The notes: a model not told the origin generated them from the letters alone. A stretch of DNA of 64,000 nt from an uncultured Candidatus Saccharibacteria bacterium (GCA_964356795.1 CAYHIK010000001.1:3111-67110); one strand, 5' to 3'; numbered from the stretch's first letter, positions 13,816-59,054 are shown. Program-made: numbers and translations.

Positions 13816-15543
13816 CTAGGCGAGTACCACGGGATTCACCCCACGCGCGAACACGTAGTGTGGGGTCATGTCGGCGCGAGAGATGCGCGCCCACCACGGA
13901 TAGAACGTTCGAAGCCAGTGCTCGAGCGACAAGAATCGCTGACGCACCTCATCGTTGACGCCCCACTTGGTTCGTTGCCATGCGCAGAATTCGGCCTGAC
14001 GAAGATCAGATGTCATTTGGTACATCACCAAGTTGCCCATCGCCAGCGGGTACTCCGAAATTTCCGCAGGCACATGCGCCTGCACGAACGATGCATAGCA
14101 CTCCGCATCTCGCGCACGAGCGCTCGTACACGCCCGCGTGAACGCCTCGCTCTGAAACTTAGGATACGTGTAGAATCCGAGCAACGGTGTTACCCGGCTC
14201 CGTGCATGGACACTCAAGCTTTGACGCTGAAGGTCGCGCCATCCACGAAACGACATCGCATTCTGCACCATCACCGATGCAACTCGGAACAACTCCGGAA
14301 GTTTATCGTATTCACCACGTGGAACATCCTGGAGCGACGAGATGAAACGCTCAAACTCCTGCTCAATCTTATTCGCGAAGTCGATACCCCCGTAGATACG
14401 ACCATCGCGTGCCAAGAGGAGTCGCTCCATCACGCGACGTTCGTCGAACAAATCGAACACGAGTTCTTCCGTCGTCTCGATATACCGTGGCATGCTCCGC
14501 TCCCACGGAGTCGGATCGCAGTGCCGAAGGAAGTATCCGTGTCCTGCGCGCACCGTTTCATCCTGAATCATCTGTGCGACTGCGACGCACTCGGGAGAGT
14601 TCTCCAGTCGCAAGTGCTTCAAGAGCTCGCCCATTGCCTCGCCTGAAACGGCAAGTCCGAGTTCGGTCAGCGTAGCGCACGGCAACAGATTGCCCAGCAC
14701 GTCGCACGACTCACCAATAACGCCGGCGTTCAAATCTTTCTGATCTGTGACGCGCGACGAAGCCCACTCGCGCACTTCGTTCGGAAACGGTCCATCAAAG
14801 TTCGCACCGATGAGTTCTCGGTACGCTTCAACCGAAGCCTCAATGGTAACCTTGGCTCGGCGTTCGTATGCTTCACCGAAAACGCCAAGCTCGTTCCAGA
14901 TGGGGTACTGGCTCTTTCCCGAGAAGTCGACGTATCGCGTCGAAAGCTCGATGAATGCCGTCCCCGGCCAGGTCCTCTCGATAATCTTTGCGACCAGAAT
15001 CGAAACCTGCTCAACGCACAGAATGAGCCGGGCGGGTCGGATAATCGAGTTGTGGCCATACCGATCCAGGTGCTCATTCTTGAAGTCCTGGATACGCTTC
15101 GATGTGGCGATGTGGCGCCAGTACTCGGGATCGCCTGCAGCACTCACGAAAGACTCGAAGAGCGAGTCGAACGCAGGCGAATGATTACAAACGGCGTCGA
15201 GACCAGAGATGCTGAGCGTTCGGAACATCTTCTGGAGATCACGCCAATCCAGGTGCTGCGCACCTCCTTCGCCCTCACGAATCCCCGCAAACATCAGGAC
15301 GGGAATGAGGTTGTCCACGATATGCCCGCGAAGACCCCGCGAATTCTTGAGTCGCGAGTACATCGCAAGCACCGTCGCAATGACTGACTCGGGAAGCCCC
15401 GACAAGAAGAAAATCTTCCGATCGATGTTCGAACAAATCGCGGCCAATGCTCGCTTTTCGCGATTCGTAAACGTATAACTCACCGGCGCATTCACAAACT
15501 CTCGCGCCGCCGCATCCATCTCCGCCCGCATACTCGCGTCCAT
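13816..15543 (-). CDS. hypothetical protein (575 aa), GC-rich
   Basis: Long uninterrupted ORF with GC-ending codons. No confident family assignment. Confidence 0.45.
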   Translation of the reverse strand: MDASMRAEMDAAAREFVNAPVSYTFTNREKRALAAICSNIDRKIFFLSGLPESVIATVLAMYSRLKNSRGLRGHIVDNLIPVLMFAGIREGEGGAQHLDWRDLQKMFRTLSISGLDAVCNHSPAFDSLFESFVSAAGDPEYWRHIATSKRIQDFKNEHLDRYGHNSIIRPARLILCVEQVSILVAKIIERTWPGTAFIELSTRYVDFSGKSQYPIWNELGVFGEAYERRAKVTIEASVEAYRELIGANFDGPFPNEVREWASSRVTDQKDLNAGVIGESCDVLGNLLPCATLTELGLAVSGEAMGELLKHLRLENSPECVAVAQMIQDETVRAGHGYFLRHCDPTPWERSMPRYIETTEELVFDLFDERRVMERLLLARDGRIYGGIDFANKIEQEFERFISSLQDVPRGEYDKLPELFRVASVMVQNAMSFRGWRDLQRQSLSVHARSRVTPLLGFYTYPKFQSEAFTRACTSARARDAECYASFVQAHVPAEISEYPLAMGNLVMYQMTSDLRQAEFCAWQRTKWGVNDEVRQRFLSLEHWLRTFYPWWARISRADMTPHYVFARGVNPVVLA

Positions 15544-21365: not shown

Positions 21366-22781
21366 TTACTTTTCTATCGTTACGTGCAGCTCACGCAGCT
21401 GTCGGGAAGAAATCGGAGACGGAGAATGCATCATGAGATCGCGCGCGTCTCCTGTCTTTGGAAATGCGAGCACTTCGCGAATGTTTGGCTCATTATGCAA
21501 GAGCGCAATCAAGCGATCCCATCCCCACGCGATACCACCATGCGGAGGCGCACCGTGTTCGAATGCAGTGAGCATGTGACCGAAGTTTTCATCGATGCGC
21601 GCATCCTCAAAGCCCATGATACGAAAGACCGCGCGAAGACCTTCTGCGGTGTGGTTGCGAATTGAACCGCCACCAATCTCCCACCCGTTGAGCACGATGT
21701 CGTATTGGGTTGTGAGAATTTCTCCCACTCGTTCAGCACTGAGGAGTAACGGCATATGCTCTGGCTTGGGAGCCGAGAACGGGTTGTGAGTAAACGTCCA
21801 TCCACCACCATCCTCTTCAGTTTTCTCAAAGAATGGAAAATCAATAACCCAGCAGAACGCCAAGAGATTCTGGTCGTTTTTATCTTCGCGTAAATCGGGA
21901 CGATCGGTGCCGTATTTCTCTATTGCATCCGCATAGCTGATGCGCGGGAATGGAACTTGTTGAATCTTCTTTTCAGGATAGCGCTTCGTCACCAAATCAA
22001 TCAGGAGTGCTTCATTGAGCGCCATCACATCTTCTCGGTTCACAAAGCTCATCTCCATATCGAGCTGTGTAAATTCGGGCTGACGGTCACCGCGCGTGTC
22101 TTCATCGCGGAAGCATCGAGCAAATTGGAAATAGCGCTCCATACCAGCCACCATGAGGAGTTGCTTGTACTGCTGTGGCGACTGAGGAAGCGCATAAAAT
22201 GAGCCCGCGTAGAGACGACTTGGCACCACGTAGTCACGCGCGCCTTCGGGAGTGCTCTTAGTGAGCATAGGCGTCTCAATTTCGATAAACTCATGGGCGT
22301 CGAGCCAATTTCGTACAAATAATTGCCCATCGTGACGCGCCTGCATGTTGCGTGCAAGCCGTGGGCGTCGCAAGTCGAGGTAGCGCCACTCATGGCGAGT
22401 GTCTTCTCCAATCTCGTATCCATCGGTGTCGAGTGGCATCGGAGGAGTTGCCGACATGTTGAGCACTTCGAGCTCGTGCGGCTCGAGTTCGATAGAGCCA
22501 GTTTCGATTTCTGAATTTCGCATCTTCTCGGGACGCTCTTTGATGAGCCCCTTAATGCGCACCACCCATTCACTACGCAGTGTCTGCGCTACCTCGTAGC
22601 AGTCGGGCGTAAACGGACCGAATACCACCTGAATTACTCCGGTGCGGTCACGTAAATCAACGAATACAAGCTTGCCGTGGTCGCGACGATTCGCAACCCA
22701 CCCAAAAAGTTCCACCTCGCTCCCCGCCATGTCCTTGGTCTTGATAATAGATAATTCCTTCATGCCCTCGCATCGTATCAT
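21366..22781 (-). CDS. aspS: aspartate--tRNA ligase (class II, short archaeal/CPR-type; could be non-discriminating)
   Basis: OB anticodon-binding N-terminus (ELFGWVANRRDHGKLVFVDLRDRTG), plus class II motifs FRDEDTRGDRQPEFTQLD and GGSIRNH. 471 aa. Confidence 0.65.
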   Translation of the reverse strand: MIRCEGMKELSIIKTKDMAGSEVELFGWVANRRDHGKLVFVDLRDRTGVIQVVFGPFTPDCYEVAQTLRSEWVVRIKGLIKERPEKMRNSEIETGSIELEPHELEVLNMSATPPMPLDTDGYEIGEDTRHEWRYLDLRRPRLARNMQARHDGQLFVRNWLDAHEFIEIETPMLTKSTPEGARDYVVPSRLYAGSFYALPQSPQQYKQLLMVAGMERYFQFARCFRDEDTRGDRQPEFTQLDMEMSFVNREDVMALNEALLIDLVTKRYPEKKIQQVPFPRISYADAIEKYGTDRPDLREDKNDQNLLAFCWVIDFPFFEKTEEDGGGWTFTHNPFSAPKPEHMPLLLSAERVGEILTTQYDIVLNGWEIGGGSIRNHTAEGLRAVFRIMGFEDARIDENFGHMLTAFEHGAPPHGGIAWGWDRLIALLHNEPNIREVLAFPKTGDARDLMMHSPSPISSRQLRELHVTIEK

Positions 22782-22800
22782 ACGATTTGACGGGTCGCAA

Positions 22801-22829
22801 TTGAAAATGTTTAGTTTTTAGGGTATGAT
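22801..22829 (+). promoter_or_regulatory. sigma70-like promoter for tRNA-Lys (TTGAAA-N17-TATGAT)
   Basis: TTGAAA at 22801-22806, a 17-nt spacer, TATGAT at 22824-22829, then 12 nt to the mature tRNA 5' end. Confidence 0.5.
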
Positions 22830-22841
22830 ATGCGAGCAAAA

Positions 22842-22914
22842 CCGCCCTTAGCTCAGTTGGTAGAGCTGCTCCCTTTTAAGGAGAAGGTCGCTGGTTCGAA
22901 TCCAGCAGGGCGGA
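22842..22914 (+). tRNA. tRNA-Lys (anticodon UUU)
   Basis: Cloverleaf worked out by hand. Acceptor CCGCCCT/AGGGCGG, D-arm GCTC-AGTTGGTA-GAGC, anticodon arm GCTCC-CTTTTAA-GGAGA with U33 and A37, T-arm GCTGG-TTCGAAT-CCAGC, discriminator A. No encoded CCA. Confidence 0.85.
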
Positions 22915-23092
22915 CTATGAATCAACGGCTAATGCCCCTGCGACATTAGCCGTTGATTTTATGATTCATCCTGCTGGATTCGAAGCCCGGAGCGATGTGG
23001 CCGCACCAGCGGACACCGTGAGGGCCGGAACCCGGAGGCATTGATTCGCGACGGCGAATCAATGACCGGAGGGTGAATCCAGCAGGGCGGAC
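22898..23092. repeat. triplicated tRNA 3'-end segment: direct copies 22898-22915 and 23075-23092 (gaatccagcagggcggac), inverted copy 22967-22985
   Basis: Exact 18-bp direct repeat of the tRNA T-arm/acceptor 3' sequence 177 bp downstream, plus a 14/19 inverted copy. This is an att-site-like architecture. Confidence 0.6.
22921..22961 (+). terminator. rho-independent terminator after tRNA-Lys
   Basis: 14-bp perfect stem atcaacggctaatg / cattagccgttgat with a 9-nt loop, followed by TTTT. Confidence 0.6.
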
Positions 23093-23162
23093 AGACATTG
23101 ACATGCGAGCCTTTCTTGTGCATGATTAAGTGTGCTCGAGATATTTTTTTTGGAGGTAGCCT

Positions 23163-23381
23163 ATGAGCGCTCGGTCCCTCGAAAGGATCCAGGAAAAGCT
23201 GTGTCGCAACGATGCGGAGATACGCGCCCTTCAGGAGAAGAGGGAGCAGCTCCTAAAAGAGCTAAAGGCAGCGTGTAGCCATCCAAAGAACAGACGCCTC
23301 CAAACAGGCACCGGTGAGGTATGCGGCGTCTGCACTAAAGTCCTTGAGTGCTATCTGCCACACATCGGAAACCACATTTAG
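23163..23381 (+). CDS. small hypothetical protein (72 aa), coiled-coil N-terminus, C-terminal CGVC...C motif
   Basis: GGAGGT SD 6 nt before the ATG. A TTGACA -35 box lies at 23098-23103, directly after the tRNA-end repeat. The gene has its own hairpin terminator at 23389-23416. Confidence 0.5.
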   Translation: MSARSLERIQEKLCRNDAEIRALQEKREQLLKELKAACSHPKNRRLQTGTGEVCGVCTKVLECYLPHIGNHI

Positions 23382-23523
23382 AATCCTAGCCGACCACATG
23401 GTCGGCCTTTCCTTTGCTCTCTTATACTCATGTCTTAATGACAAATTTCGGAAGCCCGAGCTCATTGACTTTATACAATTATTATGTTATACTTAATATA
23501 GACGTTTTTCAAAGGAGGATGCC

Positions 23524-23835
23524 GTGAATATCGCAGGTATCGACAAGGCGATCGTATTGGCCGCGTTGTACAATCGCGCCCGTACCATCGGACTGGCGGG
23601 CATGATGGACTTCGACCCCACCCCACTGGACGTGCTGGTGGCGAGGAAGATCATCAAGGAACGGCGCGGTGCCAACCCACTGTACTTCGACTACTTCCAG
23701 GGGCGTTGCATGAAGATCGATCTCTCGAGAGATGAGGTCGACACCACGCTCTTCGACAACGAGTATGGCCCGGGTGCCGCCCAGCGAGCCCTCGACGCGG
23801 CATCTGCTGTCGATGCGGACATGAAGAAGAAGTAG
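23524..23835 (+). CDS. small hypothetical protein (103 aa)
   Basis: GTG start with an AAAGGAGG SD 5 nt upstream. Terminator hairpin at 23847-23884. Confidence 0.45.
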   Translation: MNIAGIDKAIVLAALYNRARTIGLAGMMDFDPTPLDVLVARKIIKERRGANPLYFDYFQGRCMKIDLSRDEVDTTLFDNEYGPGAAQRALDAASAVDADMKKK

Positions 23836-23969
23836 AAACCCCAAACGAACCCCACGCCAAACGGTATGGGGTTCAATCTTTTTAATAAAACCTCCCGAAA
23901 CTTGATTATTATCAATAAATATTGTACAGTATTTATGTCGTTTCATAGCGCAGTTAGGAGCGAGTAATT

Positions 23970-24230
23970 ATGCGCATTGAGATTCATGACTATACGCACA
24001 TCTTCGATAGCTTAACACTCAGGCGTCCGCCGACACACACACCCCTACTTCACTCTTGGGGTGTGGACGACAGTGGATATCCACGCGTCGTTGATATCCC
24101 AGGAGCGGATGTACTCCGAATCGAACGGGCATTTGCAGAATTCAAATGGGCACAGGAACGACTTCGAGGACTCAATCGTGGCCCCGAGCCAAATTCCTGC
24201 CAATGCGGAAACTGCCCAGGGAGTAGCTAG
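23970..24230 (+). CDS. small hypothetical protein (86 aa) with C-terminal CQCGNCPG motif
   Basis: AGGAG SD upstream. Followed by the hairpin agtcgcatt-ccgt-aatgcgact and T5 at 24254-24280. Confidence 0.45.
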   Translation: MRIEIHDYTHIFDSLTLRRPPTHTPLLHSWGVDDSGYPRVVDIPGADVLRIERAFAEFKWAQERLRGLNRGPEPNSCQCGNCPGSS

Positions 24231-24286
24231 GTCGTGGTCATCAAAGTCGCATTCCGTAATGCGACTTTTTCTATCACAACAATCAC

Positions 24287-25936
24287 CTACGACTTCCCGA
24301 GCGCTTTTGCGATGAGCGCGCGAAGCTCTTCATCGCTGGTAGTGCGGAATGATGCGCCCGTTGCTGTGGGGCGACTTGGCTTCTGTTCAAACTCTTCAGC
24401 ATCTGGCTTGTGTTCTATTTTCCTCCCCTTAAAGTCGACTGCTCCTTGCAATAGATTTCCCAGCGAAGCGGGAGGGCGCACCTCGGAAGCTTGTTGTTGT
24501 GGGCGCGACTGTTGCGGACGAGGCTGCTGCGGACGCGCCACTGATTGCGATGGGAATTGACCACGAGCGGGGCGCGGTGATGCTGGCCCATCATCTCGGC
24601 GGGGCGGACGCTCGCGAGCATCATCGCGAGGCGCGTAGCCCGCAGGCACGATTGGTGCGCGCCATGCTGATATGGCAGCTTCGACTTCTGCGCGCGGATG
24701 CGCGTACATCGTGCGCGAGTATTCGATAACCTCATTGCGCGTGCTCTGCGCGAGCTTTGCGGGCGTATCCATGGTCATCGCTGAAAACGCATGACTCGTG
24801 ACACCATCAATCATCAGCTTCAGATAAATCTGACGGAACCCAAGGTTCACAATATCAGTCGCCATAAACTCTGGCGCAAACTCTTTTTCCAAAAATTCGG
24901 CGTCTTCAGCTCCAACACGGAATGAAATAATCGTGCCCACGTTTCCAAATGCCGCTTCGGCAACCTTTTCGTCTAACTGCTTGATATATTGATGCCCAAC
25001 GATAAGGGATAGGTTGAATTTACGCGCTTCGGAAAGAATATTCGCAAACGAAGCCGTCGCAAAGTTTTGGAACTCATCAACGATAAGACAGAAGTCTGCG
25101 CGCTCATGCTTGGGAATATCAACGCGACTCATTGCGGCAAGCTGAACCTTGGTGATAATCATGGCCCCCAGCAAGCGCGATGCGTCCTCCCCAATGCGGC
25201 CCTTGGAAATATCGACAAGAATAATCTTCCGCTGGTCCATCGCCTCTCGCATGTTGAACGTGGATTTCGACTGGCCTACCAGGTTACGAATCAACGAGTT
25301 TGAAACGAATTGTCCGACCTTGTTCTGAATTGCTGCCGTCGCTTCACTCGCGAACTTATCAGTGTACTTTGCAAACTCCTGCGTCCAGAATGCCTTCACC
25401 TCGCTATCGGTCACCTGGTCAACAACGGTCTTCCGGTAGTCCTTTTCTGCCAACATGCGGTTGATGCCGAGCAACGTTGAGCCAGGCGCCTCCAAGAGTG
25501 CGAGGATAGTGTTGTTGAGAATGTACTCCATACGTGCCGACCATGCGTCTTCCCAAATCTTCTTGAACACCGCCATCATACCGTCCGCCACGAGGTGACG
25601 CTGATCAAATCCGACCTGTTCCATCACATTGAACCCAACAGGAAACTGCATATCTGCTGGGTTGATGAAGATCACATCTTTGACGCGCTCGGGTGGGATA
25701 TAGTCGAGGAGATCGAACACCGCATCTCCGTGGGGGTCCATAAAGCAGAGTCCACGACCGTCCTGAATATCCTGAATCGCAAGCGTCTTGAGAAGTTCGG
25801 ACTTGCCCATGCCCGATTTGCCAACCACGTACATGTGGCGGCGACGGTCATCGAGCTTGATGCCGAAATGCGTAACAGAATTTCGAAACTCTGTGTTTCC
25901 AAACAGTACTACATCATTGTCAGAATTGGCGTTCAT
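24287..25936 (-). CDS. VirD4/TraD/TraG-like type IV secretion coupling-protein NTPase (T4SS-DNA_transf domain), no TM segments; P/R/Q-rich C-terminal tail
   Basis: Walker A GKSGMGKS and Walker B LIVDEFQNF in a TrwB/TraD-type ATPase core. The low-complexity tail is RPQQPRPQQSRPQQQ. Confidence 0.65.
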   Translation of the reverse strand: MNANSDNDVVLFGNTEFRNSVTHFGIKLDDRRRHMYVVGKSGMGKSELLKTLAIQDIQDGRGLCFMDPHGDAVFDLLDYIPPERVKDVIFINPADMQFPVGFNVMEQVGFDQRHLVADGMMAVFKKIWEDAWSARMEYILNNTILALLEAPGSTLLGINRMLAEKDYRKTVVDQVTDSEVKAFWTQEFAKYTDKFASEATAAIQNKVGQFVSNSLIRNLVGQSKSTFNMREAMDQRKIILVDISKGRIGEDASRLLGAMIITKVQLAAMSRVDIPKHERADFCLIVDEFQNFATASFANILSEARKFNLSLIVGHQYIKQLDEKVAEAAFGNVGTIISFRVGAEDAEFLEKEFAPEFMATDIVNLGFRQIYLKLMIDGVTSHAFSAMTMDTPAKLAQSTRNEVIEYSRTMYAHPRAEVEAAISAWRAPIVPAGYAPRDDARERPPRRDDGPASPRPARGQFPSQSVARPQQPRPQQSRPQQQASEVRPPASLGNLLQGAVDFKGRKIEHKPDAEEFEQKPSRPTATGASFRTTSDEELRALIAKALGKS

Positions 25937-25939
25937 AGA

Positions 25940-27268
25940 TTAGCGAGTAGGAAGCATCGTGGGTGGCTGACCCTTCTTCGACTGTACGCGTGGAAGAAGT
26001 GGAGCTTTTACATTAAGGCCTGGCATGTGCCACAACGTGGCGAGCTCTTCAACATTGAGGATGAGTGGGAAATCTTTCGGATTTTTTGACGGCTTGGCGA
26101 ACGCGCGCTTTCGATACGAGCCGTACATACCCTTCTTCTTTTTCAGCGTCCCCTCATCGGCACCAAATCCTTTGTCATTCGGGAAGAGCCAGGGGAATGT
26201 GCCCTTGTCCTTAGTGCCCGCTCCCGGCTTGAAGGTGTTCATGTTGTTGTAGAACAACTGCTTAAACATTGCGGTAATACTGGATGGACGCGCGCCATTG
26301 AATGCGTCTTTGCGAGCCACATACAGTACGCGAAGCGTTGTCTTGAATGCAACCAGCGAAAGCTTTCGCTGTATGCCTTCGAGCGCAAGCTTGTCTGCAG
26401 GCGTGAGATTCCCCATCGTGAATGGTTTCTCTTCTTTCTTTTTCTCCTCCGCAGGTGTAATCAAGCCGAACTCTGTGGCGAGAAACCCAAGAAGGGTGAA
26501 TGGAGCAAGCGCAATCGTCTGCACGAGCGGAGCTTCTGGCTTCTTGGGCTCCTTGCCAATCATCTTATCGACAACCGCTTGACCGTCTTTCACCCAATCG
26601 CCACCGGTGGGGCGGAAGATGTACTGCAACCACAAATACTCCCCAGGTCGAAGGGCGCTCATCATTTCAAGCAGTGGCGCGAGTGGATCAAGTCGAGCGT
26701 ACTCATCCTTACCTCCCGCGTCTTCAAATTCAGTCCAACTCCTGATGGGGTATGCGGGTGGCTGGGAGCCGACGAACTCGGTGCCCGACACATCGTATTG
26801 CGTTGAATCAAACTCATCGGGCAAAAGCGAGATGTAATCACCCGTCATCTTAATCTCGGCTTGCGGGTATTGCGCGAACAGAAGCGCCTCAACGGTATTC
26901 CGCTGACCCTCAGTGCATCGAATATAGAAATGAGTCTCTCCCCCATGCGAGACAATCTCGAGCGAGAACCAATCCGGGACTTTGCCCACAAAATATTGAT
27001 CCTTCCACTTAATACCTCCACCGTAGCTCGCATGAAGCCCGGCAAAAAAGTTTTGCGCTGCCATCGGACTGCTATAGAGAATCTCAGGCGGTGGAACAAT
27101 CTCGAGCACCACCCATTTCATACCAGCAAGATACGCGTCTTTGAGGTAATCAAGCCAGAGTGAACGAGCAACCGCTCCAAGAATCAGCGGGAACCACACC
27201 CACCAAAACTCAAACGCGAGCAAAAAGCCCTGTCGTAATACGCTGAGAATTGACGTCGCATCATACAT
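25940..27268 (-). CDS. membrane protein genetically coupled to the VirD4-like ATPase (possible split N-terminal membrane module of coupling protein)
   Basis: Two N-terminal TM helices, then a 400 aa soluble domain with a Lys-rich tail. Its stop lies 4 nt from the ATPase start, so the two are translationally coupled. Confidence 0.45.
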   Translation of the reverse strand: MYDATSILSVLRQGFLLAFEFWWVWFPLILGAVARSLWLDYLKDAYLAGMKWVVLEIVPPPEILYSSPMAAQNFFAGLHASYGGGIKWKDQYFVGKVPDWFSLEIVSHGGETHFYIRCTEGQRNTVEALLFAQYPQAEIKMTGDYISLLPDEFDSTQYDVSGTEFVGSQPPAYPIRSWTEFEDAGGKDEYARLDPLAPLLEMMSALRPGEYLWLQYIFRPTGGDWVKDGQAVVDKMIGKEPKKPEAPLVQTIALAPFTLLGFLATEFGLITPAEEKKKEEKPFTMGNLTPADKLALEGIQRKLSLVAFKTTLRVLYVARKDAFNGARPSSITAMFKQLFYNNMNTFKPGAGTKDKGTFPWLFPNDKGFGADEGTLKKKKGMYGSYRKRAFAKPSKNPKDFPLILNVEELATLWHMPGLNVKAPLLPRVQSKKGQPPTMLPTR

Positions 27269-27359
27269 AGTCTCTTGATAAAGTATACCACATTACGCGC
27301 AAAGGCCCCGTGTATACGGAGCCTTTGCGAACCCGCCGGATTTCTCCCGGACATGTTTT

Positions 27360-28421
27360 CTATTTCTTGCGAAGATGGAAGTGGCCGTTTTCGTCTTTCA
27401 CGAATGTGCCAGAATCCTGGAGATTCAATAGAATCGTATTCTCCTTTACCAAGCGTACCGAGCTCACGCGAGCAACCAACTCCACGCGTGGCAATGGCTT
27501 GCCATGTGAGCGAAGGATATCTACTAGCACATCTTTGACGGTGCCCGATTTATATCCCCACTCGGAGAGCGCATACATACCGCGGCCAACGAGCACAAAT
27601 CGCTTGTCCTTGATGAGCTCATTGTGCACGGTCTGCACGTTCACCTTCTTTGCATCAAATTTTGCCACGTTGATAAGCTTCGCAATCTGGCTGAAGTGCT
27701 GAGGCTTTTCTGCCTGCTTGATCACCAAATACGCCTTATCGCGAACACCCTTGGGACGAATCTGGCTCCAGTGGGTCAATCCCATCTGGCCAAAAATATT
27801 GCATCCGAGGTCCTTGCAAATAGCAGAAATCGTTGCGAGGTGCTTATCGGTAAACTTTGAACCATCGAGTGCGGATACATTATTTTTCGTCGCAAGCTCA
27901 ATGACCTGGCCCACGGGAATAACCGAATTATGAGACTGAAGGGCGGACGTGAGCGCCGCAACCTGCGCGCGGAACGCATCGAGGGTCGCGCGGCTACGCG
28001 TCCAAAACGCGTGGTAGTGGTCGTTGTCCGCCATACGAATCAATTCAGTGTCGAGTGTAAGTGCAAAAATAAGAGAGGCATTGGCGACGGTGTCCTTGTC
28101 GTTTCCTGACACCATTTTGAACAATGCTCGCTCACGAACAACCCCACCCTCCCGAGCAATCAAATCCTTCATACTTGATGTAAATCGAGTCAATTCACGA
28201 ATATCTGAAGCATGCTTTGCGAGCTGAGCAAGCGCGAACTCTTCAATCTGTCGAACGCGTTCACGAGTGATTCCGTACCCCTTACCGATGGATTCGAGCG
28301 TTTCCTTGGTGCCTGTCTTCAAACCAAAGCGCCGTGAGACGATATCACGGTTACGCGGATTGAGCGTTTTGACCAACTGTGCGACTGACTTGGTCAGGGT
28401 TTTTACATCGATAGTTGCCAT
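27360..28421 (-). CDS. sigma-70 region-4-like HTH domain protein
   Basis: N-terminal ...GITRERVRQIEEFALAQL, the sigma r4 HTH signature, followed by a ~300 aa domain of unknown function. Likely ATG at 28421; the track ORF starts at TTG 28487. Confidence 0.45.
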   Translation of the reverse strand: MATIDVKTLTKSVAQLVKTLNPRNRDIVSRRFGLKTGTKETLESIGKGYGITRERVRQIEEFALAQLAKHASDIRELTRFTSSMKDLIAREGGVVRERALFKMVSGNDKDTVANASLIFALTLDTELIRMADNDHYHAFWTRSRATLDAFRAQVAALTSALQSHNSVIPVGQVIELATKNNVSALDGSKFTDKHLATISAICKDLGCNIFGQMGLTHWSQIRPKGVRDKAYLVIKQAEKPQHFSQIAKLINVAKFDAKKVNVQTVHNELIKDKRFVLVGRGMYALSEWGYKSGTVKDVLVDILRSHGKPLPRVELVARVSSVRLVKENTILLNLQDSGTFVKDENGHFHLRKK

Positions 28422-28526
28422 ACGTTTGCATCTGTTATCTAAAGCAATGCCGTCCTCTCGGGGCAGCACGCCTACATACAGTAGCAATTATTATTAAACT
28501 CGTCAAGCCCTCCCGCCAGACACTCC

Positions 28527-29471
28527 CTACCGAGACTTATTTCGACGACTCATCCACACAAGAACCGGTGATGCGATAAAGATTGAGGAATACGCCCCCA
28601 GGCCAATCCCGAGCATAAGCGCAAGGGCAAAATACTTGATACTGTCCCCTCCAAACAAGAACACCGCAAGGGATGACAGGATCACCACGAGCGTATTATT
28701 GATAGAGCGAACCAGCGTTTGCATGACACTTTCGTGTACCAAGTCTGGCAGGGAAAGCTTCGAGCCACGAAGGATATTCTCGCGGACGCGGTCATAGATA
28801 ACCACCTTGTCGGAGACGGTGTAGCCCAAGATGGTCAAGATTGCGGCAACATAGATACCAGTGATTTGGACATCGTAGAAATGCCCAAGTACCGCGAAGA
28901 CGCCCATAGGGATAATGATGTCGTGCGCGAGGCCGAGAAGCGTCCCCGCGGTCATCGCCCACAGCGAGAGTGACCGTGAAAGCGTTCTAAACATCCACGC
29001 GATGTACACGAGCACCGCCGTCAATAAGATAAAAATTGCGAGCTTACTCTTTTGCACAAGCTCGTCTCCAAGCGCAGGTCCGATGGAATCGAATCGCACC
29101 TCGGTGATTGTTGTCGTTGGAAATGCCTTCGTAAGCCCCTCCAGGAGCGCCTGATGTTCAGTCTCGCTCAGTGGACCACTTCGAATAATGGTCTCGGAAT
29201 CGCCCGACGGGCTTACGGTGATATCGAGATACGACTTCCCATCAAGCTGTGCAATCGCCTTGATGACATCGTCATTCGCTGGTCGCTCGCTAAATTGCAC
29301 CTCGAGAATACTCCCGCCCGTGAAGTCAACGCCCCAATTCAAGCCCCATACTTTCAATACGCCAAACGACGCAATGAGTATGATGACCGAAGCCGCGAAC
29401 ATGACAGAATAAAATCGTTTCATGGAATCAAGAGAATAATGCTCGATACTTACCAAGACGGCTCGATGCAA
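28527..29471 (-). CDS. secF: protein translocase subunit SecF
   Basis: GLNWGVDFTGGSILEVQF motif and an RND-like 6-TM topology. The start could instead be ATG at 29423. Confidence 0.8.
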   Translation of the reverse strand: MHRAVLVSIEHYSLDSMKRFYSVMFAASVIILIASFGVLKVWGLNWGVDFTGGSILEVQFSERPANDDVIKAIAQLDGKSYLDITVSPSGDSETIIRSGPLSETEHQALLEGLTKAFPTTTITEVRFDSIGPALGDELVQKSKLAIFILLTAVLVYIAWMFRTLSRSLSLWAMTAGTLLGLAHDIIIPMGVFAVLGHFYDVQITGIYVAAILTILGYTVSDKVVIYDRVRENILRGSKLSLPDLVHESVMQTLVRSINNTLVVILSSLAVFLFGGDSIKYFALALMLGIGLGAYSSIFIASPVLVWMSRRNKSR

Positions 29472-30786
29472 ACACTCGCAAGAATGTACGCGTTACCACG
29501 ATAGAGGTAAACAAGCTTATAATAACGCCCGTCCCCAACGTGAGTGCAAACCCTCGAACAATCGACGCCGTGAATGCATACAGGACCAATGCGCTAATGA
29601 ATGCCGTCACGTGACTGTCGCGAATCGATGGCCACGACCGACGGAATCCCTCTGCCATCGCCGCACTGAGCGAGCGCCCTGCAGAAAGCTCCTCTTTCAT
29701 ACGAGCAAAAATAAGGACATTTGCATCAAGCGCCATGCCCAGCGAAAGAATGAATCCAGCTACACCCGCGAGCGTCAATGTGACGGGTAATGCCTTATAT
29801 ACAGAAAGCGTAATAAGAAGATAGACACCCAATGCAAGAAGCGACGTGACACCGGGAAGACGGTAAAAGGCAATCATGAAGAGGCCCACAAGAATGAGTC
29901 CCCATACTCCCGCATTCATACTATTCTGAAGCGATTCCTGACCCAGCGATGCTCCAATCGTCTGCTGTGAAATAAGCTTGATTGGCACGGGAAGCGCTCC
30001 GCTATTGAGGCGGGTTGCAAGCAACTTCGATTCTGGGGCTGTGAAGTTTCCGCTAATGACGGCGCTTCCATCCACAATCTCACTCTGAACAACAGGGATA
30101 CTAATAGGAACCCCGTCGAGGAAGATCGCGACCGGCTTCCCAAGATTGCGTCGCGTAATATCGGCAAATAACTTTGCGCCTTCATCGTTGAGCTCAAGAC
30201 TCACCTGGGGTCGTCCCGTCTGAGGGTCGAATGACACCAGCGCGCGTTTTAATTGTTTGCCAGAAAGGCCTGTTGAAATCCACGCATTTGGATCGGTAGC
30301 GCTCTGCTCTTTGAATTCCAAGAATGGCGTCTCCCCGATGAGCTTGATTGCCTCGTTCACATCCTTTACACCCGCAATCTCAACAATGAGTCTATCCGAG
30401 CCGCTGATTTGCACGACTGGCTCTGCAACACCAAAGAAGTTCACCCGACGCTCGACGACATCGCGAACACCCTGCATCGCAGAGGCGCGGTCAATATCGG
30501 CGGCAAGGCCTGAGAAGTCCGCCTGATACAGTAAGTGTGCACCTCCGAGTAAATCGAGCCCAAGGGTAAACGGTTGCGCGGGAACACTCGGAATCGGTCC
30601 GAGCCATGAAGGGAGATACTGATTCGTAAATCCAATACCGCGATTTACTGCACTCGGAGACACGTACACAAACAACGCCAACGATATGAGAATTATGCTT
30701 GAGAGAATTTTTGAGTTTCGCGTCATGCGTGGAACATCAATTACGGGCTTCATGATGACAATACTGACCGTTCTTGTCAAATCCAC
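29428..30786 (-). CDS. secD: protein translocase subunit SecD
   Basis: LGLDLLGGAHLLYQAD motif, a periplasmic domain and a C-terminal 6-TM bundle. Start ambiguous between GTG 30786, ATG 30753 and ATG 30726. Confidence 0.8.
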   Translation of the reverse strand: MDLTRTVSIVIMKPVIDVPRMTRNSKILSSIILISLALFVYVSPSAVNRGIGFTNQYLPSWLGPIPSVPAQPFTLGLDLLGGAHLLYQADFSGLAADIDRASAMQGVRDVVERRVNFFGVAEPVVQISGSDRLIVEIAGVKDVNEAIKLIGETPFLEFKEQSATDPNAWISTGLSGKQLKRALVSFDPQTGRPQVSLELNDEGAKLFADITRRNLGKPVAIFLDGVPISIPVVQSEIVDGSAVISGNFTAPESKLLATRLNSGALPVPIKLISQQTIGASLGQESLQNSMNAGVWGLILVGLFMIAFYRLPGVTSLLALGVYLLITLSVYKALPVTLTLAGVAGFILSLGMALDANVLIFARMKEELSAGRSLSAAMAEGFRRSWPSIRDSHVTAFISALVLYAFTASIVRGFALTLGTGVIISLFTSIVVTRTFLRVFASSRLGKYRALFS

Positions 30787-31002
30787 GGCTCTTCATGACG
30801 TCCTCCATATGGGTCCTTCGCCGATAGTCCCTGCTCGGAACTTGGTCACAAAGAACGCTCACCTCGCGAACCGTAGAACATGTTGCAATATTGGGGATGC
30901 AACATTCTGCGGCTCGCCATCAGCTCGCATCTATCATTTCTGCCAAGATTCCTAGGGCAGGGGCTACCGGCTACGGATCACTCGATATATGCTCTTACTA
31001 AT

Positions 31003-31030
31003 GAAAAGGCGGAGATGGTTAGTCTCCGCC
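31003..31030 (-). terminator. rho-independent terminator after small membrane protein gene
   Basis: ggcggaga/tctccgcc stem followed, on the minus strand, by TTTTCATT. Confidence 0.5.
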
Positions 31031-31055
31031 GAGGACGCACTACCGCCGACGCTTT

Positions 31056-31430
31056 CTACGAGATGCCGGCGTTATCTGGCTTCCGCCTGGTGAAGAACCC
31101 GCGGAGATAGTAGTAAGCCACCCCCTGCAAGGAGCCGATGATCATGAAGATCCCCGGGGAAAGGACGTAGAACAAGCGGATGTGCCACTCAAGTCCGCCC
31201 GTCGTGATCGTCCACATGGGAATGCCGCCGATTACGAGACCCAGCGGACCCCATACCAACACCTCCCGAGTGGACAGGTAACCCGAACCACCCGCTCTCT
31301 TCATGTGAATCTTCGCCAGTGTGAACCCGAGGAGCACTGCGCATGGCCACTCAGCCAGCCACACCAGACTACCCACAAACCCGAGCGCCACGAACACTAC
31401 GAGCAACGTAAATTCCATGCAAACCTCCAC
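31056..31430 (-). CDS. small 4-TM membrane protein (hypothetical)
   Basis: 124-codon ORF, four hydrophobic segments; no CrcB or SMR signature. Confidence 0.4.
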   Translation of the reverse strand: MEVCMEFTLLVVFVALGFVGSLVWLAEWPCAVLLGFTLAKIHMKRAGGSGYLSTREVLVWGPLGLVIGGIPMWTITTGGLEWHIRLFYVLSPGIFMIIGSLQGVAYYYLRGFFTRRKPDNAGIS

Positions 31431-40773: not shown

Positions 40774-42525
40774 CTACCGCAGGATATCAGCACCCGTCGC
40801 ATACCATGAAACCTCTGCATCGTTCACCGTGAATATCGCTCCCCAGTCTCGACCTGAGGCGTCCCACTGGGTTGCAGTGATGTTCATCCAGTGCTTCGTG
40901 CCATCCGGCCACACCGCATATACTTTTTTCTGGCTTTGCGCACGCACGTAGTTGCTCGTGGTGTATCGGGCGAAGATATCGTCAGGCACTTCTATTACCG
41001 GCCTCGACTCAAATCCATACAACTCAAGCACGCCCCTCGGAAGATAGCGCCGATACGCGCCCCACACGACATAAACCTCATCCTGCCCCGCACGACGAAT
41101 TAAATCACCATCAGAAAGTTGCACGTATTGTGGGGCGGGCACATTTGGAGTCGGAGTCGGACTCTGCGCTATATTCGTCGACACCAACGAAGCGTCACCT
41201 ATACCGACAGAGACTGACACCGCCCGCACATCAACACTCCGCGTCCCAACGGGTTGCATCGAACCATAGGATATCGCGACCGCGACGGATGTGAGCGGGA
41301 CTCCGCTTCGTTGAGCGGGTATGGGCACATCTGCTATACCCCCAACTGATACAAATGGCACTATCGAAATCTGCGAATTCTGATAGGTCCCAATCACAGC
41401 GCCACGCCACGCCACATCTGAAGCTCCCTGGATACGAATGCGAGCATCAGGATGAGATGCTGTGGTGTTCGTCATTATCGCCTTGAACCAAAGAGGCTGC
41501 CACTCTCGAACTGAATACGTGAAGTTTGCGCGCGTCGAAACATCGATAGTTGCCTGTAATGTCGGCGGAACATGAAGCGCCTGCAATCCACTTCGGATGT
41601 AGCCGTACTTTGAATTGGTTGTTCGATCGTTGAGATATGATGCAACCATCCAGTCGACAAACACGTCACCAAATGAGCGAGCCTCCCCGCCTTGGCGAAG
41701 CGCCGACTCCACCGCCGAAACTCCTGCCATATCGTTGTGCATCGAATTCGCAATGACATCGGCTCCATAGTGATCCACAATATAATGCGCAAAGAGCGAA
41801 GCGACGGCATAATCATTCGACGTGTTGGGCCACTCTACGAGCGAGTCGGAAGGTGACTGCGCAAACGTATCCATCCGACGCTGAAGCGTACTTCCTCCAA
41901 ATGGCTCGCTGTACCCGGCCAGCGTGATTGCGTATTCACTGCGCGCCTCGTTGAGCCACACGTCATCCATGACATCACGCAAAAGTTCTTTCTGATTAAA
42001 TGAGATGAGATGCTGGAACTCATGCACGAGAAATGTCTTCGCATTCCCCGTGAGCGCGCTCTCTGCGCTGACAAATATCATCTCGCGCGCATTACTCGCC
42101 GATGCCCGCTCTTGTGAGTAGTTGTGGATCGTCTCAAAGTACCCACCGCTCCCGCCCACAAGGCGCTCGAGGAGAATGACTACGTGCGGATCTCCGTCAA
42201 CGCCAGGGTTTGCCTCTTTACCCCAAAATTCCGTGGAGCGAGGATAGATGACAGCATCGAATTCATTCGCAAGCGTTGTAAGATTCGCCGCGTAGCGTTG
42301 CTGCTGATCAAATGGGAGCGATGACCAATATCGATCGTCAACATAAAAATATGCGTGCTGGCTCACGTTCCGAAGCGTGGCAGAAAGAGTGTTCGCGCCG
42401 CTCGCATCGTAGAGTACGTTTACTCGAAATGTCTGAATTTGACCAAGTGTATCGGCATACACAGCCCGAGCGCCACTCAAAAAGAGCGTAAGTATGAGGC
42501 CGGTAGCAACAACGTATCGCTTCAT
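40774..42525 (-). CDS. secreted zincin-like metallopeptidase (HExxH), 583 aa
   Basis: Signal peptide MKRYVVATGLILTLFLSGARAVYA and an FLVHEFQHLISF motif. The C-terminal region is beta-rich. Confidence 0.4.
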   Translation of the reverse strand: MKRYVVATGLILTLFLSGARAVYADTLGQIQTFRVNVLYDASGANTLSATLRNVSQHAYFYVDDRYWSSLPFDQQQRYAANLTTLANEFDAVIYPRSTEFWGKEANPGVDGDPHVVILLERLVGGSGGYFETIHNYSQERASASNAREMIFVSAESALTGNAKTFLVHEFQHLISFNQKELLRDVMDDVWLNEARSEYAITLAGYSEPFGGSTLQRRMDTFAQSPSDSLVEWPNTSNDYAVASLFAHYIVDHYGADVIANSMHNDMAGVSAVESALRQGGEARSFGDVFVDWMVASYLNDRTTNSKYGYIRSGLQALHVPPTLQATIDVSTRANFTYSVREWQPLWFKAIMTNTTASHPDARIRIQGASDVAWRGAVIGTYQNSQISIVPFVSVGGIADVPIPAQRSGVPLTSVAVAISYGSMQPVGTRSVDVRAVSVSVGIGDASLVSTNIAQSPTPTPNVPAPQYVQLSDGDLIRRAGQDEVYVVWGAYRRYLPRGVLELYGFESRPVIEVPDDIFARYTTSNYVRAQSQKKVYAVWPDGTKHWMNITATQWDASGRDWGAIFTVNDAEVSWYATGADILR

Positions 42526-42620: not shown

Positions 42621-43985
42621 ATGAGGAAGATTTCCCTCTTATTTTCTGACTTTTTGGCATTTTATGGGGCTCTAGCGCTCATACTTTTGGCACGATATGG
42701 CGCCTCCCAATGGTCTAACCAGTGGGATGTCCACGTCGCGCCATTCTCGATTTTGCTCGTGGTATGGATTTTTGCACTCTACATCGCAAATCTCTATGAA
42801 CAGCGCACCATGCGTAATGACCGTGCGTTCTTCGAGCGACTCGCCCAGGCAATGACCGTTGCAACCATTGCGTCGATTATCTTCTTCTATCTTATCCCTA
42901 CGTTCGGCATCGCCCCAAAGCTAAACCTATTCTTGTTCCTCATCACACTCGCCGCGCTCATGTGGGCGATCCGACTCGGCTACAACCGCGTACTCGCATC
43001 GGGCTCAAAGAAAAACATCCTCGTCGTTGGCCATAATCAAGAATCACTTGAGCTTGTTCAGTTCATTTCCGAAAATCCCCAGTTCGGATACCGTGTTGCG
43101 GGAATCCTCCGCATCGGCCAGCATGAGCTCCCACTCGATGAACGCCCCATCTTGTGCCCCATCATCGAATCTCTCCAGGACGCGCCTGCGTTCATCGACA
43201 CAGAAGATATTGCGCTTGTCGTCATTAGCCCGTCAGCGTATGCGATGCGGGAAGTGGTAGACCTCTTCTTTGGCACGCTTTCCCAGCGCGTCGACTTCAC
43301 GAAGCTCGCCACATTCACCGAGACACTCACCGGCACCGTGCCATTGGGAGCCATCGACCAAACATGGTTCCTCGACAATATCTCGCAACACTCTCGTCGT
43401 GCATTCGACGTCATCAAGCGCGCCACGGATATCGCAGCCGTCGTCGTGCTTGGAATTCCAACGCTCGCGATACTACCATTCGTAGCGCTTGCAATTTATG
43501 CCGAATCCCCGGGCCCCATCTTCTTCACCAATCGACGCACTGGCCGAGGCGGTAAGCCGTTTGATATGTTGAAGTTCCGCTCCATGCGACCCGACGCTGA
43601 ACGCACCACCGGTGCTGTGTGGGCATCACAGAACGACCCCCGCGTAACCCGCGTCGGCAAATTCCTTCGCACCACTCGAATTGATGAACTCCCTCAACTC
43701 GTCAACATTCTCCGCGGAGAAATGTCCCTTGTTGGTCCGCGAGCAGAACGCCCAGAATTCGACTCTCAACTCGCTACCCAAATCCCCTTCTATCGAGAGC
43801 GCTATCTCATCAAACCAGGACTCTCAGGTTGGGCACAAATTAACTACCCGTATGGGTCTTCCGTGCAGGACGCGGAGCATAAGCTCGAGTACGATCTCTA
43901 CTATATCAAGCATCGTTCACTCGTGCTTGATGTCGAGATTATCCTCAAAACAATCAATATCTCGATTCGACGGGCGGGGCGCTAG
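42621..43985 (+). CDS. polyprenyl-phosphate sugar phosphotransferase (bacterial sugar transferase/WbaP family)
   Basis: N-terminal TM helices and a C-terminal DELPQLVNILRGEMSLVGPR...PGLSGWAQ signature. Confidence 0.8.
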   Translation: MRKISLLFSDFLAFYGALALILLARYGASQWSNQWDVHVAPFSILLVVWIFALYIANLYEQRTMRNDRAFFERLAQAMTVATIASIIFFYLIPTFGIAPKLNLFLFLITLAALMWAIRLGYNRVLASGSKKNILVVGHNQESLELVQFISENPQFGYRVAGILRIGQHELPLDERPILCPIIESLQDAPAFIDTEDIALVVISPSAYAMREVVDLFFGTLSQRVDFTKLATFTETLTGTVPLGAIDQTWFLDNISQHSRRAFDVIKRATDIAAVVVLGIPTLAILPFVALAIYAESPGPIFFTNRRTGRGGKPFDMLKFRSMRPDAERTTGAVWASQNDPRVTRVGKFLRTTRIDELPQLVNILRGEMSLVGPRAERPEFDSQLATQIPFYRERYLIKPGLSGWAQINYPYGSSVQDAEHKLEYDLYYIKHRSLVLDVEIILKTINISIRRAGR

Positions 43986-46255: not shown

Positions 46256-46271
46256 AGTGATATATTCTATT

Positions 46272-48795: not shown

Positions 48796-48799
48796 AGCG

Positions 48800-50131: not shown

Positions 50132-50166
50132 GCGCGCATACTAGCACGGAATGACGCGAAAATAAA

Positions 50167-57193: not shown

Positions 57194-57196
57194 GCG

Positions 57197-58973: not shown

Positions 58974-59054
58974 TTTTGCTAGACTTTACGATACCACGCT
59001 CGCACAAAAACAAAAAGCCTTGTATTTACTACTGTATACTATTAAGATTTCTCC

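Follow-up and report, generated by a model that had tools for sequence, protein, structure and literature searches.

A probable split coupling-protein-type ATPase of the type IV secretion family conserved across Patescibacteria

Background

The coupling proteins of type IV secretion systems (T4SS), such as TrwB, VirD4 and TraD, carry an N-terminal two-helix transmembrane (TM) domain in the same polypeptide as the motor. A 64,000-nucleotide stretch of DNA from an uncultured Candidatus Saccharibacteria bacterium (GCA_964356795.1, CAYHIK010000001.1:3111-67110; hereafter, the window) encodes a coupling-protein-like P-loop ATPase without such a domain, directly 3' of a gene for a membrane protein of the DUF8128 family (Table 1). 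The locus raises the question of whether these two proteins form a single machine and, if so, of which kind. The initial annotation had read the pair, at positions 24287-27268 of the minus strand, as a split type IV coupling protein (T4CP), and both open reading frames (ORFs), of 442 and 549 amino acids, are found there. The comparative analysis described here points in the same direction: the two genes probably encode the two halves of one translocation ATPase of the T4SS family, a split variant of the coupling-protein type that occurs throughout the candidate phyla radiation (CPR, Patescibacteria).

A gene pair conserved throughout Patescibacteria

A scan of the GTDB species representatives with a DUF8128 alignment identifies at least 485 relatives, of which the best 80 loci were compared; all 80 come from Patescibacteria, among them Yanofsky-, Wolfe-, Colwell-, Moran-, Uhr-, Nomura- and Kerfeldbacteria and Microgenomates. 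Several metagenome-assembled genomes (MAGs) among the related loci bear titles (Saccharibacteria, Gammaproteobacteria, Bdellovibrionales) that evidently mislabel Patescibacteria. The ATPase gene lies directly 3' of the DUF8128 gene, on the same strand, in 71 of the 76 loci with room downstream, which bears out the proposed linkage of the two proteins. The spacing is 20 nt or less in 40 of 67 loci (median about 15 nt, range -4 to 387 nt). In the window, the junction reads CGC-TAA-TCT-ATG, so the two ORFs share a frame and are separated by 3 nt, not by the 4 nt originally given, although adjacency and strand are as described. No Shine-Dalgarno-like sequence is present at this junction, and neither protein has a paralog in the window.

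The two ORFs share a frame in 33 of the 67 loci, compared with about 22 expected; the excess could go back to a fused ancestral gene or may reflect mere relatedness of the loci. A fusion by stop-codon read-through was rejected, given the number of loci with a shared frame and the range of spacings. An apparent 1016-aa fusion (locus L057, 5242-8292) is false: it arises from a stretch of masked N that covers the junction in the GTDB contig.

Beyond these loci, the DUF8128 profile retrieves 3,122 cluster representatives at 50% identity, 944 of them at E<=1e-30, among 1.84 billion proteins, and the best 150 matches are all stand-alone proteins of 277-605 aa. Many matches in the DUF8128 and ATPase homolog lists share contigs, including one pair with adjacent locus tags (A2750_03750/03755). 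At equal evolutionary distance across CPR classes, the ATPase retains 51-61% identity, compared with 29-39% for DUF8128; the former values are comparable to those for SecD (57%) and AspRS (65%) in the same loci. The two genes form a phylum-wide core pair, carried on the chromosome, inherited vertically and strongly constrained by purifying selection. A view of the pair as a peculiarity of one genome does not hold, given this distribution and the fact that orphan VirD4-like genes of the phylum have already been counted (Quinonero-Coronel et al. 2025, PMC12102498). Relatives of the pair were not found in IMG/VR.

An intact motor without a membrane anchor

The Walker A (GKSGMGKS) and DEF motifs reported by the initial annotation are present in the ATPase. 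Walker A spans G39-KSGMGK-S46 and Walker B spans L284-IVDEF-289, and K45, D287 and E288 are invariant among 39 homologs, so that, judged by these residues, the protein is predicted to be a catalytically intact motor. Its nucleotide-binding domain (NBD) is recognized by T4CP models: searches with hidden Markov models place it with VirD4/TraD, as had been proposed, and not with FtsK/SpoIIIE. The Pfam models TrwB_AAD_bind (PF10412, 41.5 bits, cut-off 20.5) and TraG-D_C (PF12696, 25.5 bits, cut-off 22) both match, DUF87 is barely over its cut-off, and the top NCBIfam matches are TraD/VirD4-like models (SXT_TraD, conju_CD1115, TOL_TraD). The closest sequence match in the PDB is TrwB (E = 9e-8), with an alignment that spans the NBD and the all-alpha domain and begins right behind the deletion point of the TM domain of TrwB. 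An FtsK_SpoIIIE motor signature combined with closest structural similarity to that family was not found in the ATPase. Taken together, the sequence profiles support a placement within the VirB4/VirD4 clade and favor the VirD4/TrwB branch over FtsK/SpoIIIE.

The AlphaFold2 (AF2) model built from 39 homologs (mean predicted local distance difference test, pLDDT, 77.7) consists of a RecA-like core, an all-helical insert, a disordered stretch (427-534) and a terminal helix. The insert helices (H113-H234) sit between strands E88-91 and E238-242, and the sequence alignment with TrwB covers the all-alpha region of the latter, so that the ATPase possesses the all-alpha insert of coupling proteins. 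No hydrophobic segment was detected in the ATPase (maximum Kyte-Doolittle, KD, 19-residue mean 1.15), and none of 120 homologs reaches 1.6. Walker A begins at residue 39, and the N-terminal TM domain that T4CPs carry in the same chain is missing; the motor is indeed soluble, as originally described. The P/R/Q-rich tail with which the protein was said to end does exist (about 120 C-terminal residues, predicted to be disordered), but the very end is a conserved short helix with the motif (D/E)-L-(K/R)-x-(L/I)-(I/L)-x-x-(A/S)-L-G-K in nearly all 39 homologs, L538 being invariant. This terminal motif looks like a docking motif; the C-terminus of TraD carries a known one, likewise at the end of an unstructured tail.

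A partner with the fold of the VirB4 N-terminal domain

The partner was assigned to DUF8128 (PF26449) through the precomputed Pfam annotation of an identical protein (P0121) and of all 120 listed homologs; the papers searched do not mention this family. Its AF2 model has a pLDDT of 82.9 and a predicted template modelling score of 0.77. A Foldseek search started with this model identifies TrwK, the VirB4 protein of plasmid R388, in all 14 best matches, the first 13 with E values of 2e-5 to 6e-4. P-loop proteins are absent from the 60 matches listed in a separate structural comparison, which indicates that the model matches the N-terminal domain (NTD) of VirB4 and not the VirB4 motor; the protein thus has an NTD with the VirB4/TrwK fold. 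At the sequence level, the best PDB match of DUF8128 has an E value of 0.14, and DUF8128 was found neither by tblastn in phage and plasmid records nor in PADLOC or IMG/VR. Kinship of DUF8128 with VirB4, and with the fused proteins described below, is visible at the profile and structure level only.

The initial annotation described the partner as a two-TM protein with a poly-Lys C-terminus; the second detail does not stand, and the first probably does not either. The window protein has two hydrophobic stretches, at residues 15-34 and 246-270. Among 113 DUF8128 members, the N-terminal segment reaches a KD value of at least 1.2 in 85% and at least 1.6 in 58%, whereas the central one reaches these values in just 33% and 21%, respectively. 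An alignment of 42 homologs displays very strong conservation, with a gapped and variable region around the second stretch. The alignment with the VirB4 NTD covers 248 residues, more than either half of the protein contains, so that both halves appear to belong to one cytoplasmic fold, and the central stretch is therefore unlikely to cross the membrane. The inferred topology is a single N-terminal anchor with the N-terminus out and the C-terminus in. A membrane partner is retained, although not as a generic two-TM anchor: as far as the structural model tells, DUF8128 is a homolog of the VirB4 NTD with one conserved TM helix.

The Lys-rich patches (EEKKKEEK, KKKK) do occur in the protein, and its end is a highly conserved peptide with the consensus ILNxEELATLWHLPGLNVKAPxxPRVxAKKGQPPxxLPTR among the 42 homologs; E408, A410, T411, P416, A422, R427, P435, P436, L439 and P440 are invariant. 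The peptide has low pLDDT when the protein is modelled alone, and its motif stands right before the ATPase domain in the fused homologs.

Single-chain relatives in phages, plasmids and archaea

The reading of the pair as a split T4CP gains support, beyond the linkage, from proteins in other lineages that combine both modules in one chain. In PHROG 5156, a functionally unannotated profile of 824 positions, DUF8128 covers positions 74-316 and the ATPase 406-804. Searches led by tblastn identify such proteins in the jumbo Bacillus phage G (gp156, 825 aa) and the SPO1-like phage CP-51 (gp91, 911 aa), and on plasmids of Bacillus subtilis (NZ_OX419568, WP_213380696, 913 aa), Embleya, a member of Actinomycetota (WP_331738717, 812 aa), and the haloarchaeon Haladaptatus (WP_227380633, 1193 aa). 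The analysis of the fused family covers these five examples plus the probable case of SEML1_0293, discussed below. The phage loci correspond to L004 1223-5365 (phage G) and L005 2753-5488 (CP-51); the fused protein is also present in JL, Shanette and SP-10, which, like CP-51, are virulent SPO1-like Bacillus phages.

A database search with the N-terminal 335 aa of phage G gp156 gave no matches. Comparison by hhalign of the DUF8128 profile with the N-termini of the fused proteins detects similarity to phage G gp156 with the probability of 97% (E = 1e-10), to the B. subtilis plasmid protein with 96% (E = 3e-9), to the Haladaptatus protein with 76% (E = 2e-5) and to the Embleya protein with 71% (E = 4e-5). 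Every one of these alignments is collinear and closes in an ...ELA..-H-P... motif just before Walker A. The hydrophobic segments of the fused proteins follow no common pattern (absent, N-terminal or central), which fits a VirB4-like peripheral association with the membrane.

On the B. subtilis plasmid, the next gene after the fusion is labelled 'replication-relaxation family' (without a match in Pfam or NCBIfam). Conjugal-transfer genes come after it, as do a member of the TcpE family and a VirB4-like ATPase that matches AAA_10 (280 bits). In the Embleya plasmid, the fusion lies between a VirB4/TraC-like P-loop_TraG/AAA_10 ATPase and a Replic_Relax protein (126 bits); a gene of the PrgI family is found near the ATPase, and an NlpC/P60 hydrolase comes after the Replic_Relax protein. 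In phage G, the VirB4-like gp155 (conju_CD1110, E = 3e-51) directly precedes gp156. The Bacillus and Embleya fusions occupy the coupling-protein slot of T4SS-type clusters that have a separate VirB4.

These contexts bear on an alternative under which the pair is a VirB4 split into two genes, i.e., the assembly or energizing ATPase of a T4SS and not its coupling protein. The two proteins jointly reproduce the domain order of VirB4 and, according to the passages of PMC12102498 on VirB4, TrsD-type 'VirB4 N-terminus-like' genes that are separate from VirB4 are common in Patescibacteria. However, none of the VirB4 models CagE_TrbE_VirB, AAA_10, TIGR00929 and conju_CD1110 matches the ATPase or DUF8128 at E<=0.1 (only VirB4_plasma gives a match, at 15 bits; phage G gp155, by comparison, matches such models at 1e-51), whereas T4CP models do match the ATPase, and the fused relatives coexist with a bona fide VirB4-like gene while filling the T4CP slot. 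Moreover, the same passages describe a monophyletic VirB4 clade of Patescibacteria's own, and DUF8128 shows no similarity to TrsD of pGO1: its identification as a TrsD or TrsJ homolog was rejected (hhalign probability 0.1%). A split VirB4 is accordingly improbable, and a split coupling-protein-type ATPase remains the preferred reading.

Comparison with known systems

With TrwB/VirD4/TraD (e.g., R388 TrwB, PDB 1E9R), the window ATPase shares the P-loop NBD with its all-alpha insert, the TrwB_AAD_bind and TraG-D_C signatures and, with TraD, the layout of the C-terminal tail. The differences are that the N-terminal module is encoded by its own gene and folds like the VirB4 NTD, not as a two-helix TM domain, and that the pair is chromosomal and vertically inherited, without linked relaxase or T4SS genes. 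VirB4/TrwK of R388 (PDB 7O42, 8RTD; VirB4 C-terminal domain, CTD, 4AG5) has the same order of NTD and motor as the window pair but is a single polypeptide, is recognized by sequence models that fail on the window proteins, relies on VirB3 where the pair has a TM helix of its own, and exists as a separate, genuine protein beside the fused relatives. The single-chain fusions share with the pair both modules, their order and the ...EELA..-H-P... motif before Walker A; in contrast to the pair, they are one polypeptide, are mostly borne by plasmids and phages and, in Bacillus and Embleya, adjoin relaxase-type and VirB4/VirB3-like genes. Their ATPase identity to the window protein is 20-31%, and kinship of the NTD is detectable at the profile level only.

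An analogous arrangement has been proposed for plasmids pIP501 and pGO1, where a TM-less coupling protein would use a separate small membrane protein as its anchor (PMC12857230). As in the window, the gene for the soluble T4CP (TraJ, TrsK) lies just 3' of that for the proposed anchor (TraI, TrsJ). Unlike DUF8128, TraI and TrsJ are small two-TM proteins without a VirB4-NTD-like domain, and these pairs are found inside conjugation operons. The match of the window ATPase to TrsK is weak (hhalign E = 0.006, probability 6%), so the likeness is architectural only.

Proposed mechanism and role in Patescibacteria

In the mechanism that we propose, coupled translation would make DUF8128 and the ATPase in a fixed ratio, and the conserved C-terminal peptide of DUF8128 would dock on the N-terminal strands of the ATPase. 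With DUF8128 oriented N-out/C-in, docking would hold a hexameric motor at the membrane on its cytoplasmic side, where the motor would spend ATP on recruiting a substrate and driving it to a channel in the membrane. This substrate is most likely DNA, given that relaxase-type genes adjoin the fusions of Bacillus and Embleya. A docking platform of the T4SS type is suggested by the VirB4-NTD-like partner; in R388, the VirB4 NTD docks on VirB3 and VirB8 of the T4SS (structures 7O42/8RTD).

Published data on Patescibacteria help to define the role of the pair. The passages of PMC12102498 on T4CP-like genes report VirB4 in 2,417 of 3,035 Patescibacteria genomes and 5,713 VirD4-like genes in 2,918 of them (96%), just 148 of these genes being near virB4; the exaptation of the orphans, in the words of that study, 'cannot be ruled out'. 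These counts amount to about two T4CP-like genes per genome. The orphan 't4cp' genes very probably belong to the same family as the window ATPase; the passages in question contain no DUF8128 partner, VirB4-NTD fold, split/fused relationship or block of SecDF and sigma/HARE genes.

In Southlakia epibionticum (Wang et al. 2023, PMC10633639 supplements), SEML1_0293 encodes a protein of 921 aa with PF10412 at 402-719 within a P-loop domain at 361-795 and no domain assigned to residues 1-360. Directly 5' of it lies SEML1_0294 (349 aa), with Sigma70_r4 at 27-72 and HARE-HTH at 225-283. Because domain sizes, coordinates and synteny match, SEML1_0293 is likely to be a fused ortholog of the window pair. 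By transposon sequencing in the same source, SEML1_0293 is non-essential in all three analyses (NE/NE/NE) and SEML1_0294 is essential, as is a second T4CP-like gene, SEML1_0142 (ES; 1019 aa, with a TraM-recognition domain), which is a candidate for the genuine coupling protein of the essential T4SS in CPR. In the SEML1_0140-0142 locus, two small proteins precede SEML1_0142, one of them essential and the other growth-defective. Given that the apparent ortholog is dispensable whereas SEML1_0142 and the T4SS genes are essential, the pair probably does not serve the T4SS of CPR as its essential coupling ATPase; most likely, it is an accessory, alternative substrate receptor or translocase, which could be a further receptor of the same T4SS or could work independently of it, for instance in DNA uptake.

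Several observations weigh against the reading of the pair as a split coupling-protein-type ATPase. The scores with T4CP models are modest (41 bits in Pfam) and lie far under the NCBIfam equivalog cut-offs; structurally, the motor is equally close to the VirB4 CTD, the C-domain of DndH/DptH and TrwB; and the top PADLOC match is the defence component mad8 (E = 1.8e-19). Five of the 76 loci keep DUF8128 without an adjacent ATPase, and in one of these (L062) an MltG-like gene follows instead. The gene order is shared with SecDF, so synteny here can reflect ancestry and not function, and in neither the window nor the 80 related loci is the pair linked to genes for T4SS components, relaxases, pilins or competence. 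Finally, the interaction of DUF8128 with the ATPase is a prediction from gene linkage and fusions, and the orthology of SEML1_0293 is deduced from domain coordinates and synteny, not from its sequence.

The mad8 match, weak PADLOC matches to HerA and DndH, and the marginal DUF87 score could indicate a defence or DNA-repair ATPase of the HerA/DndH/mad8 kind or an FtsK-like motor for chromosome segregation; most plasmid homologs, furthermore, reside on plasmids typed 'non-mobilizable'. Yet the 80 loci contain no adjacent defence partner, be it a nuclease, a methyltransferase, Sir2 or another, the partner has the fold of a T4SS component, and the order of the block is kept across classes, unlike that of defence islands. 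The same features (absence of adjacent defence partners, partner fold and core synteny) distinguish the pair from the C-domain of DptH/DndH (7ES4), mad8 of MADS, and HerA, and we give little credence to a role of this kind.

The initial annotation suggested a minimal DNA-translocation or DNA-uptake module. Under this alternative, a membrane-tethered hexamer would act independently of a T4SS and pull DNA in or out via another channel, such as ComEC or the type IV pilus machinery, which would help a nucleotide-auxotrophic epibiont to scavenge DNA. The absence of virB4 or T4SS linkage in the window and the 80 loci is compatible with this possibility, as are the larger number of Patescibacteria genomes with T4CP-like genes than with VirB4 in the survey passages cited above, the relaxase-type neighbors of the Bacillus and Embleya fusions, which point to a DNA cargo, and a weak match of the ATPase to the NCBIfam model of the archaeal DNA-import ATPase CedD (E = 4e-6). 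In addition, the putative ortholog SEML1_0293 is non-essential in S. epibionticum, like comEC (PMC12857230). However, neither competence nor pilus genes are linked to the pair in the same loci, the VirB4-NTD-like partner suggests a T4SS-type platform, the gap between genome counts is explained by about two T4CP-like copies per genome together with MAG incompleteness, and DNA binding by the pair is a conjecture here. A T4SS-independent uptake motor is therefore possible but unlikely, and we continue to favor a split coupling-protein-type ATPase. A more far-reaching and quite unlikely scenario is that DUF8128 and its T4CP-like partner form a phylum-wide T4SS-independent translocase, near the common ancestor of both T4SS ATPases, that moves DNA or another polymer across the membrane in the host-dependent lifestyle, perhaps together with the essential sigma70_r4/HARE-HTH protein.

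The component families and the orphan T4CP-like genes of Patescibacteria are already known, and the pair is not a new kind of machine. What we did not find described is the DUF8128 partner with its VirB4-NTD fold, the block that includes the essential sigma70_r4/HARE-HTH protein, and the split/fused relationship that extends over CPR, Bacillota, Actinomycetota, haloarchaea and Bacillus phages. Patescibacteria represent much of bacterial diversity, and a good number of the genes that they conserve have yet to be assigned a function; the current labels of the pair are a DUF for one half and a generic 'T4SS DNA-binding domain' for the other. Homology to the VirB4 NTD, together with equivalence to one polypeptide that fills the coupling-protein slot on the Bacillus and Embleya plasmids, provides a concrete model by which this core module of CPR can be tested. 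As a lineage of T4SS ATPases in which VirB4-type and VirD4-type parts are mixed, the pair also bears on the divergence of the two motors.

Genomic neighborhood

The pair closes a conserved block of genes that run in one direction, SecD-SecF-[Sigma70_r4 + HARE-HTH]-DUF8128-ATPase. Clustering of ORFs places block members in 77, 70, 64 and 53 of the 80 loci, 64 being the count for the sigma70_r4/HARE-HTH cluster, and in 61 of 70 related loci the gene for the latter directly precedes DUF8128 on its strand. In the window protein, Sigma70_r4 covers residues 40-90 and HARE-HTH 250-310; this protein might be a factor resembling the delta subunit of RNA polymerase or a DNA-binding partner of the ATPase module. 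A relative with 65% identity keeps the order RNase_H_2-SecD-SecF-sigma/HARE-DUF8128-ATPase...AspRS-PBP-MraY-FtsW. A promoter and terminator scan of 22700-31200 gave counts not above those in shuffled sequences and does not resolve the operon limits.

Table 1. Features of the DUF8128-ATPase locus and its surroundings (window coordinates)
Feature	Position	Strand	Remarks
DUF8128 gene	25940..27268	-	442 aa; N-terminal TM anchor and VirB4-N-terminal-domain-like soluble module; 5' partner of the ATPase
Predicted TM helix, conserved, DUF8128 aa 15-34	27167..27226	-	N-terminal; KD 19-residue maximum 1.83
Variable hydrophobic and Lys/Glu-rich linker, DUF8128 aa 246-285	26414..26533	-	'Second TM' of the initial annotation; probably not membrane-spanning
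Conserved C-terminal peptide, DUF8128 aa 402-442, ILNVEELATLWHMPGLNVKAPLLPRVQSKKGQPPTMLPTR	25943..26065	-	Proposed ATPase-docking segment
Gene junction	25934..25942	-	DUF8128 stop TAA, 3-nt spacer TCT, ATPase start ATG
TM-less VirD4/TrwB-type (coupling-protein-like) P-loop ATPase gene	24287..25936	-	549 aa
Walker A	25799..25822	-	Sequence; G39, K40, G42, G44 and K45 invariant in 39 homologs
All-alpha insert of the NBD, aa ~113-234	25235..25600	-	AF2 helices; TrwB alignment
Walker B	25070..25087	-	Sequence; D287, E288, F289 and Q290 invariant in the homolog alignment
Disordered P/R/Q-rich tail, aa 427-534	24335..24658	-	pLDDT 37-69; homologs differ in length and sequence
Conserved C-terminal amphipathic helix (…SDEELRALIAKALGKS)	24290..24334	-	Homolog motif; AF2 helix 535-546
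Sigma70_r4 + HARE-HTH DNA-binding protein gene	27360..28487	-	375 aa; Pfam; 91-nt gap, possibly same operon
SecD and SecF genes	28527..30786	-	Pfam; homologs in 51-53 of 80 related loci
tRNA-Lys(UUU) 3' end, GAATCCAGCAGGGCGGAC	22898-22915	+	Exact 18-nt repeat at 23075-23092, 177 nt apart
Three small ORFs	23163-24230	+	72, 103 and 86 aa; between tRNA-Lys and the ATPase gene, convergent with the latter

Overall, the window has a housekeeping character and a uniform GC content (0.46-0.56); it includes genes for MurG, Lon, a Mur ligase, FemAB, FtsW, MraY, a penicillin-binding protein (PBP), AspRS, tRNA-Lys, SecDF and SecA, as well as a large glycosylation cluster. Among the large ORFs, Pfam scans detect only housekeeping, envelope and glycosylation genes and no VirB4, VirB6, relaxase, pilin or competence gene anywhere in the 64 kb, in agreement with the initial annotation. 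The PrgI/VirB3/TcpE-like genes of a VirB4 context were found neither in the window nor in the related loci, and no T4SS-like family is among the recurrent neighbors within 6 kb on either side in the 80 loci; association with a relaxase and/or VirB4, as in T4CPs, is seen for the fused plasmid relatives only.

The tRNA-Lys gene lies 1.4 kb 3' of the ATPase gene. Together with the 18-nt direct repeat of the tRNA 3' end and the orphan small ORFs between the two genes, it could mark the pair as a decaying remnant of an integrated conjugative element. However, the repeats are just 177 nt apart and do not bracket the pair, on which ground an origin from a mobile element via these repeats was rejected; the pair and its upstream neighbors are syntenic in relatives down to 30% identity; the GC content is uniform; window scans detect neither an integrase nor a relaxase; and both genes are intact and strongly conserved. 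Such a remnant is extremely improbable. The repeat region itself looks like an att-site scar or a tRNA-derived duplication that does not enclose the ATPase pair. An inverted copy of the tRNA-Lys 3' end is present at 22970-84, and a 12-nt repeat (22826-37 / 23099-110) flanks the whole region (22826-23110, plus strand). The three small ORFs have no Pfam match and no homolog in the 80 related loci and look like a lineage-specific insertion; they are also present in the near-identical contigs L001 and L002.

Elsewhere in the window, the glycosylation cluster (43982-63970) spans 20 kb of mostly co-directional envelope-glycosylation genes with a slightly lower GC content (0.46-0.51). It encodes a Wzy_C-TPR protein, GT4, GT2 and GT9 transferases, a flippase, five class-I methyltransferases and two large membrane proteins of the GT2/YfhO type (1028 and 797 aa). 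A 575-aa ORF at 13816-15543 (minus strand) has a partial Thy1/ThyX match at aa 149-309 and is unusually long for ThyX, and a 583-aa ORF at 40774-42525 (minus strand) has no Pfam match.

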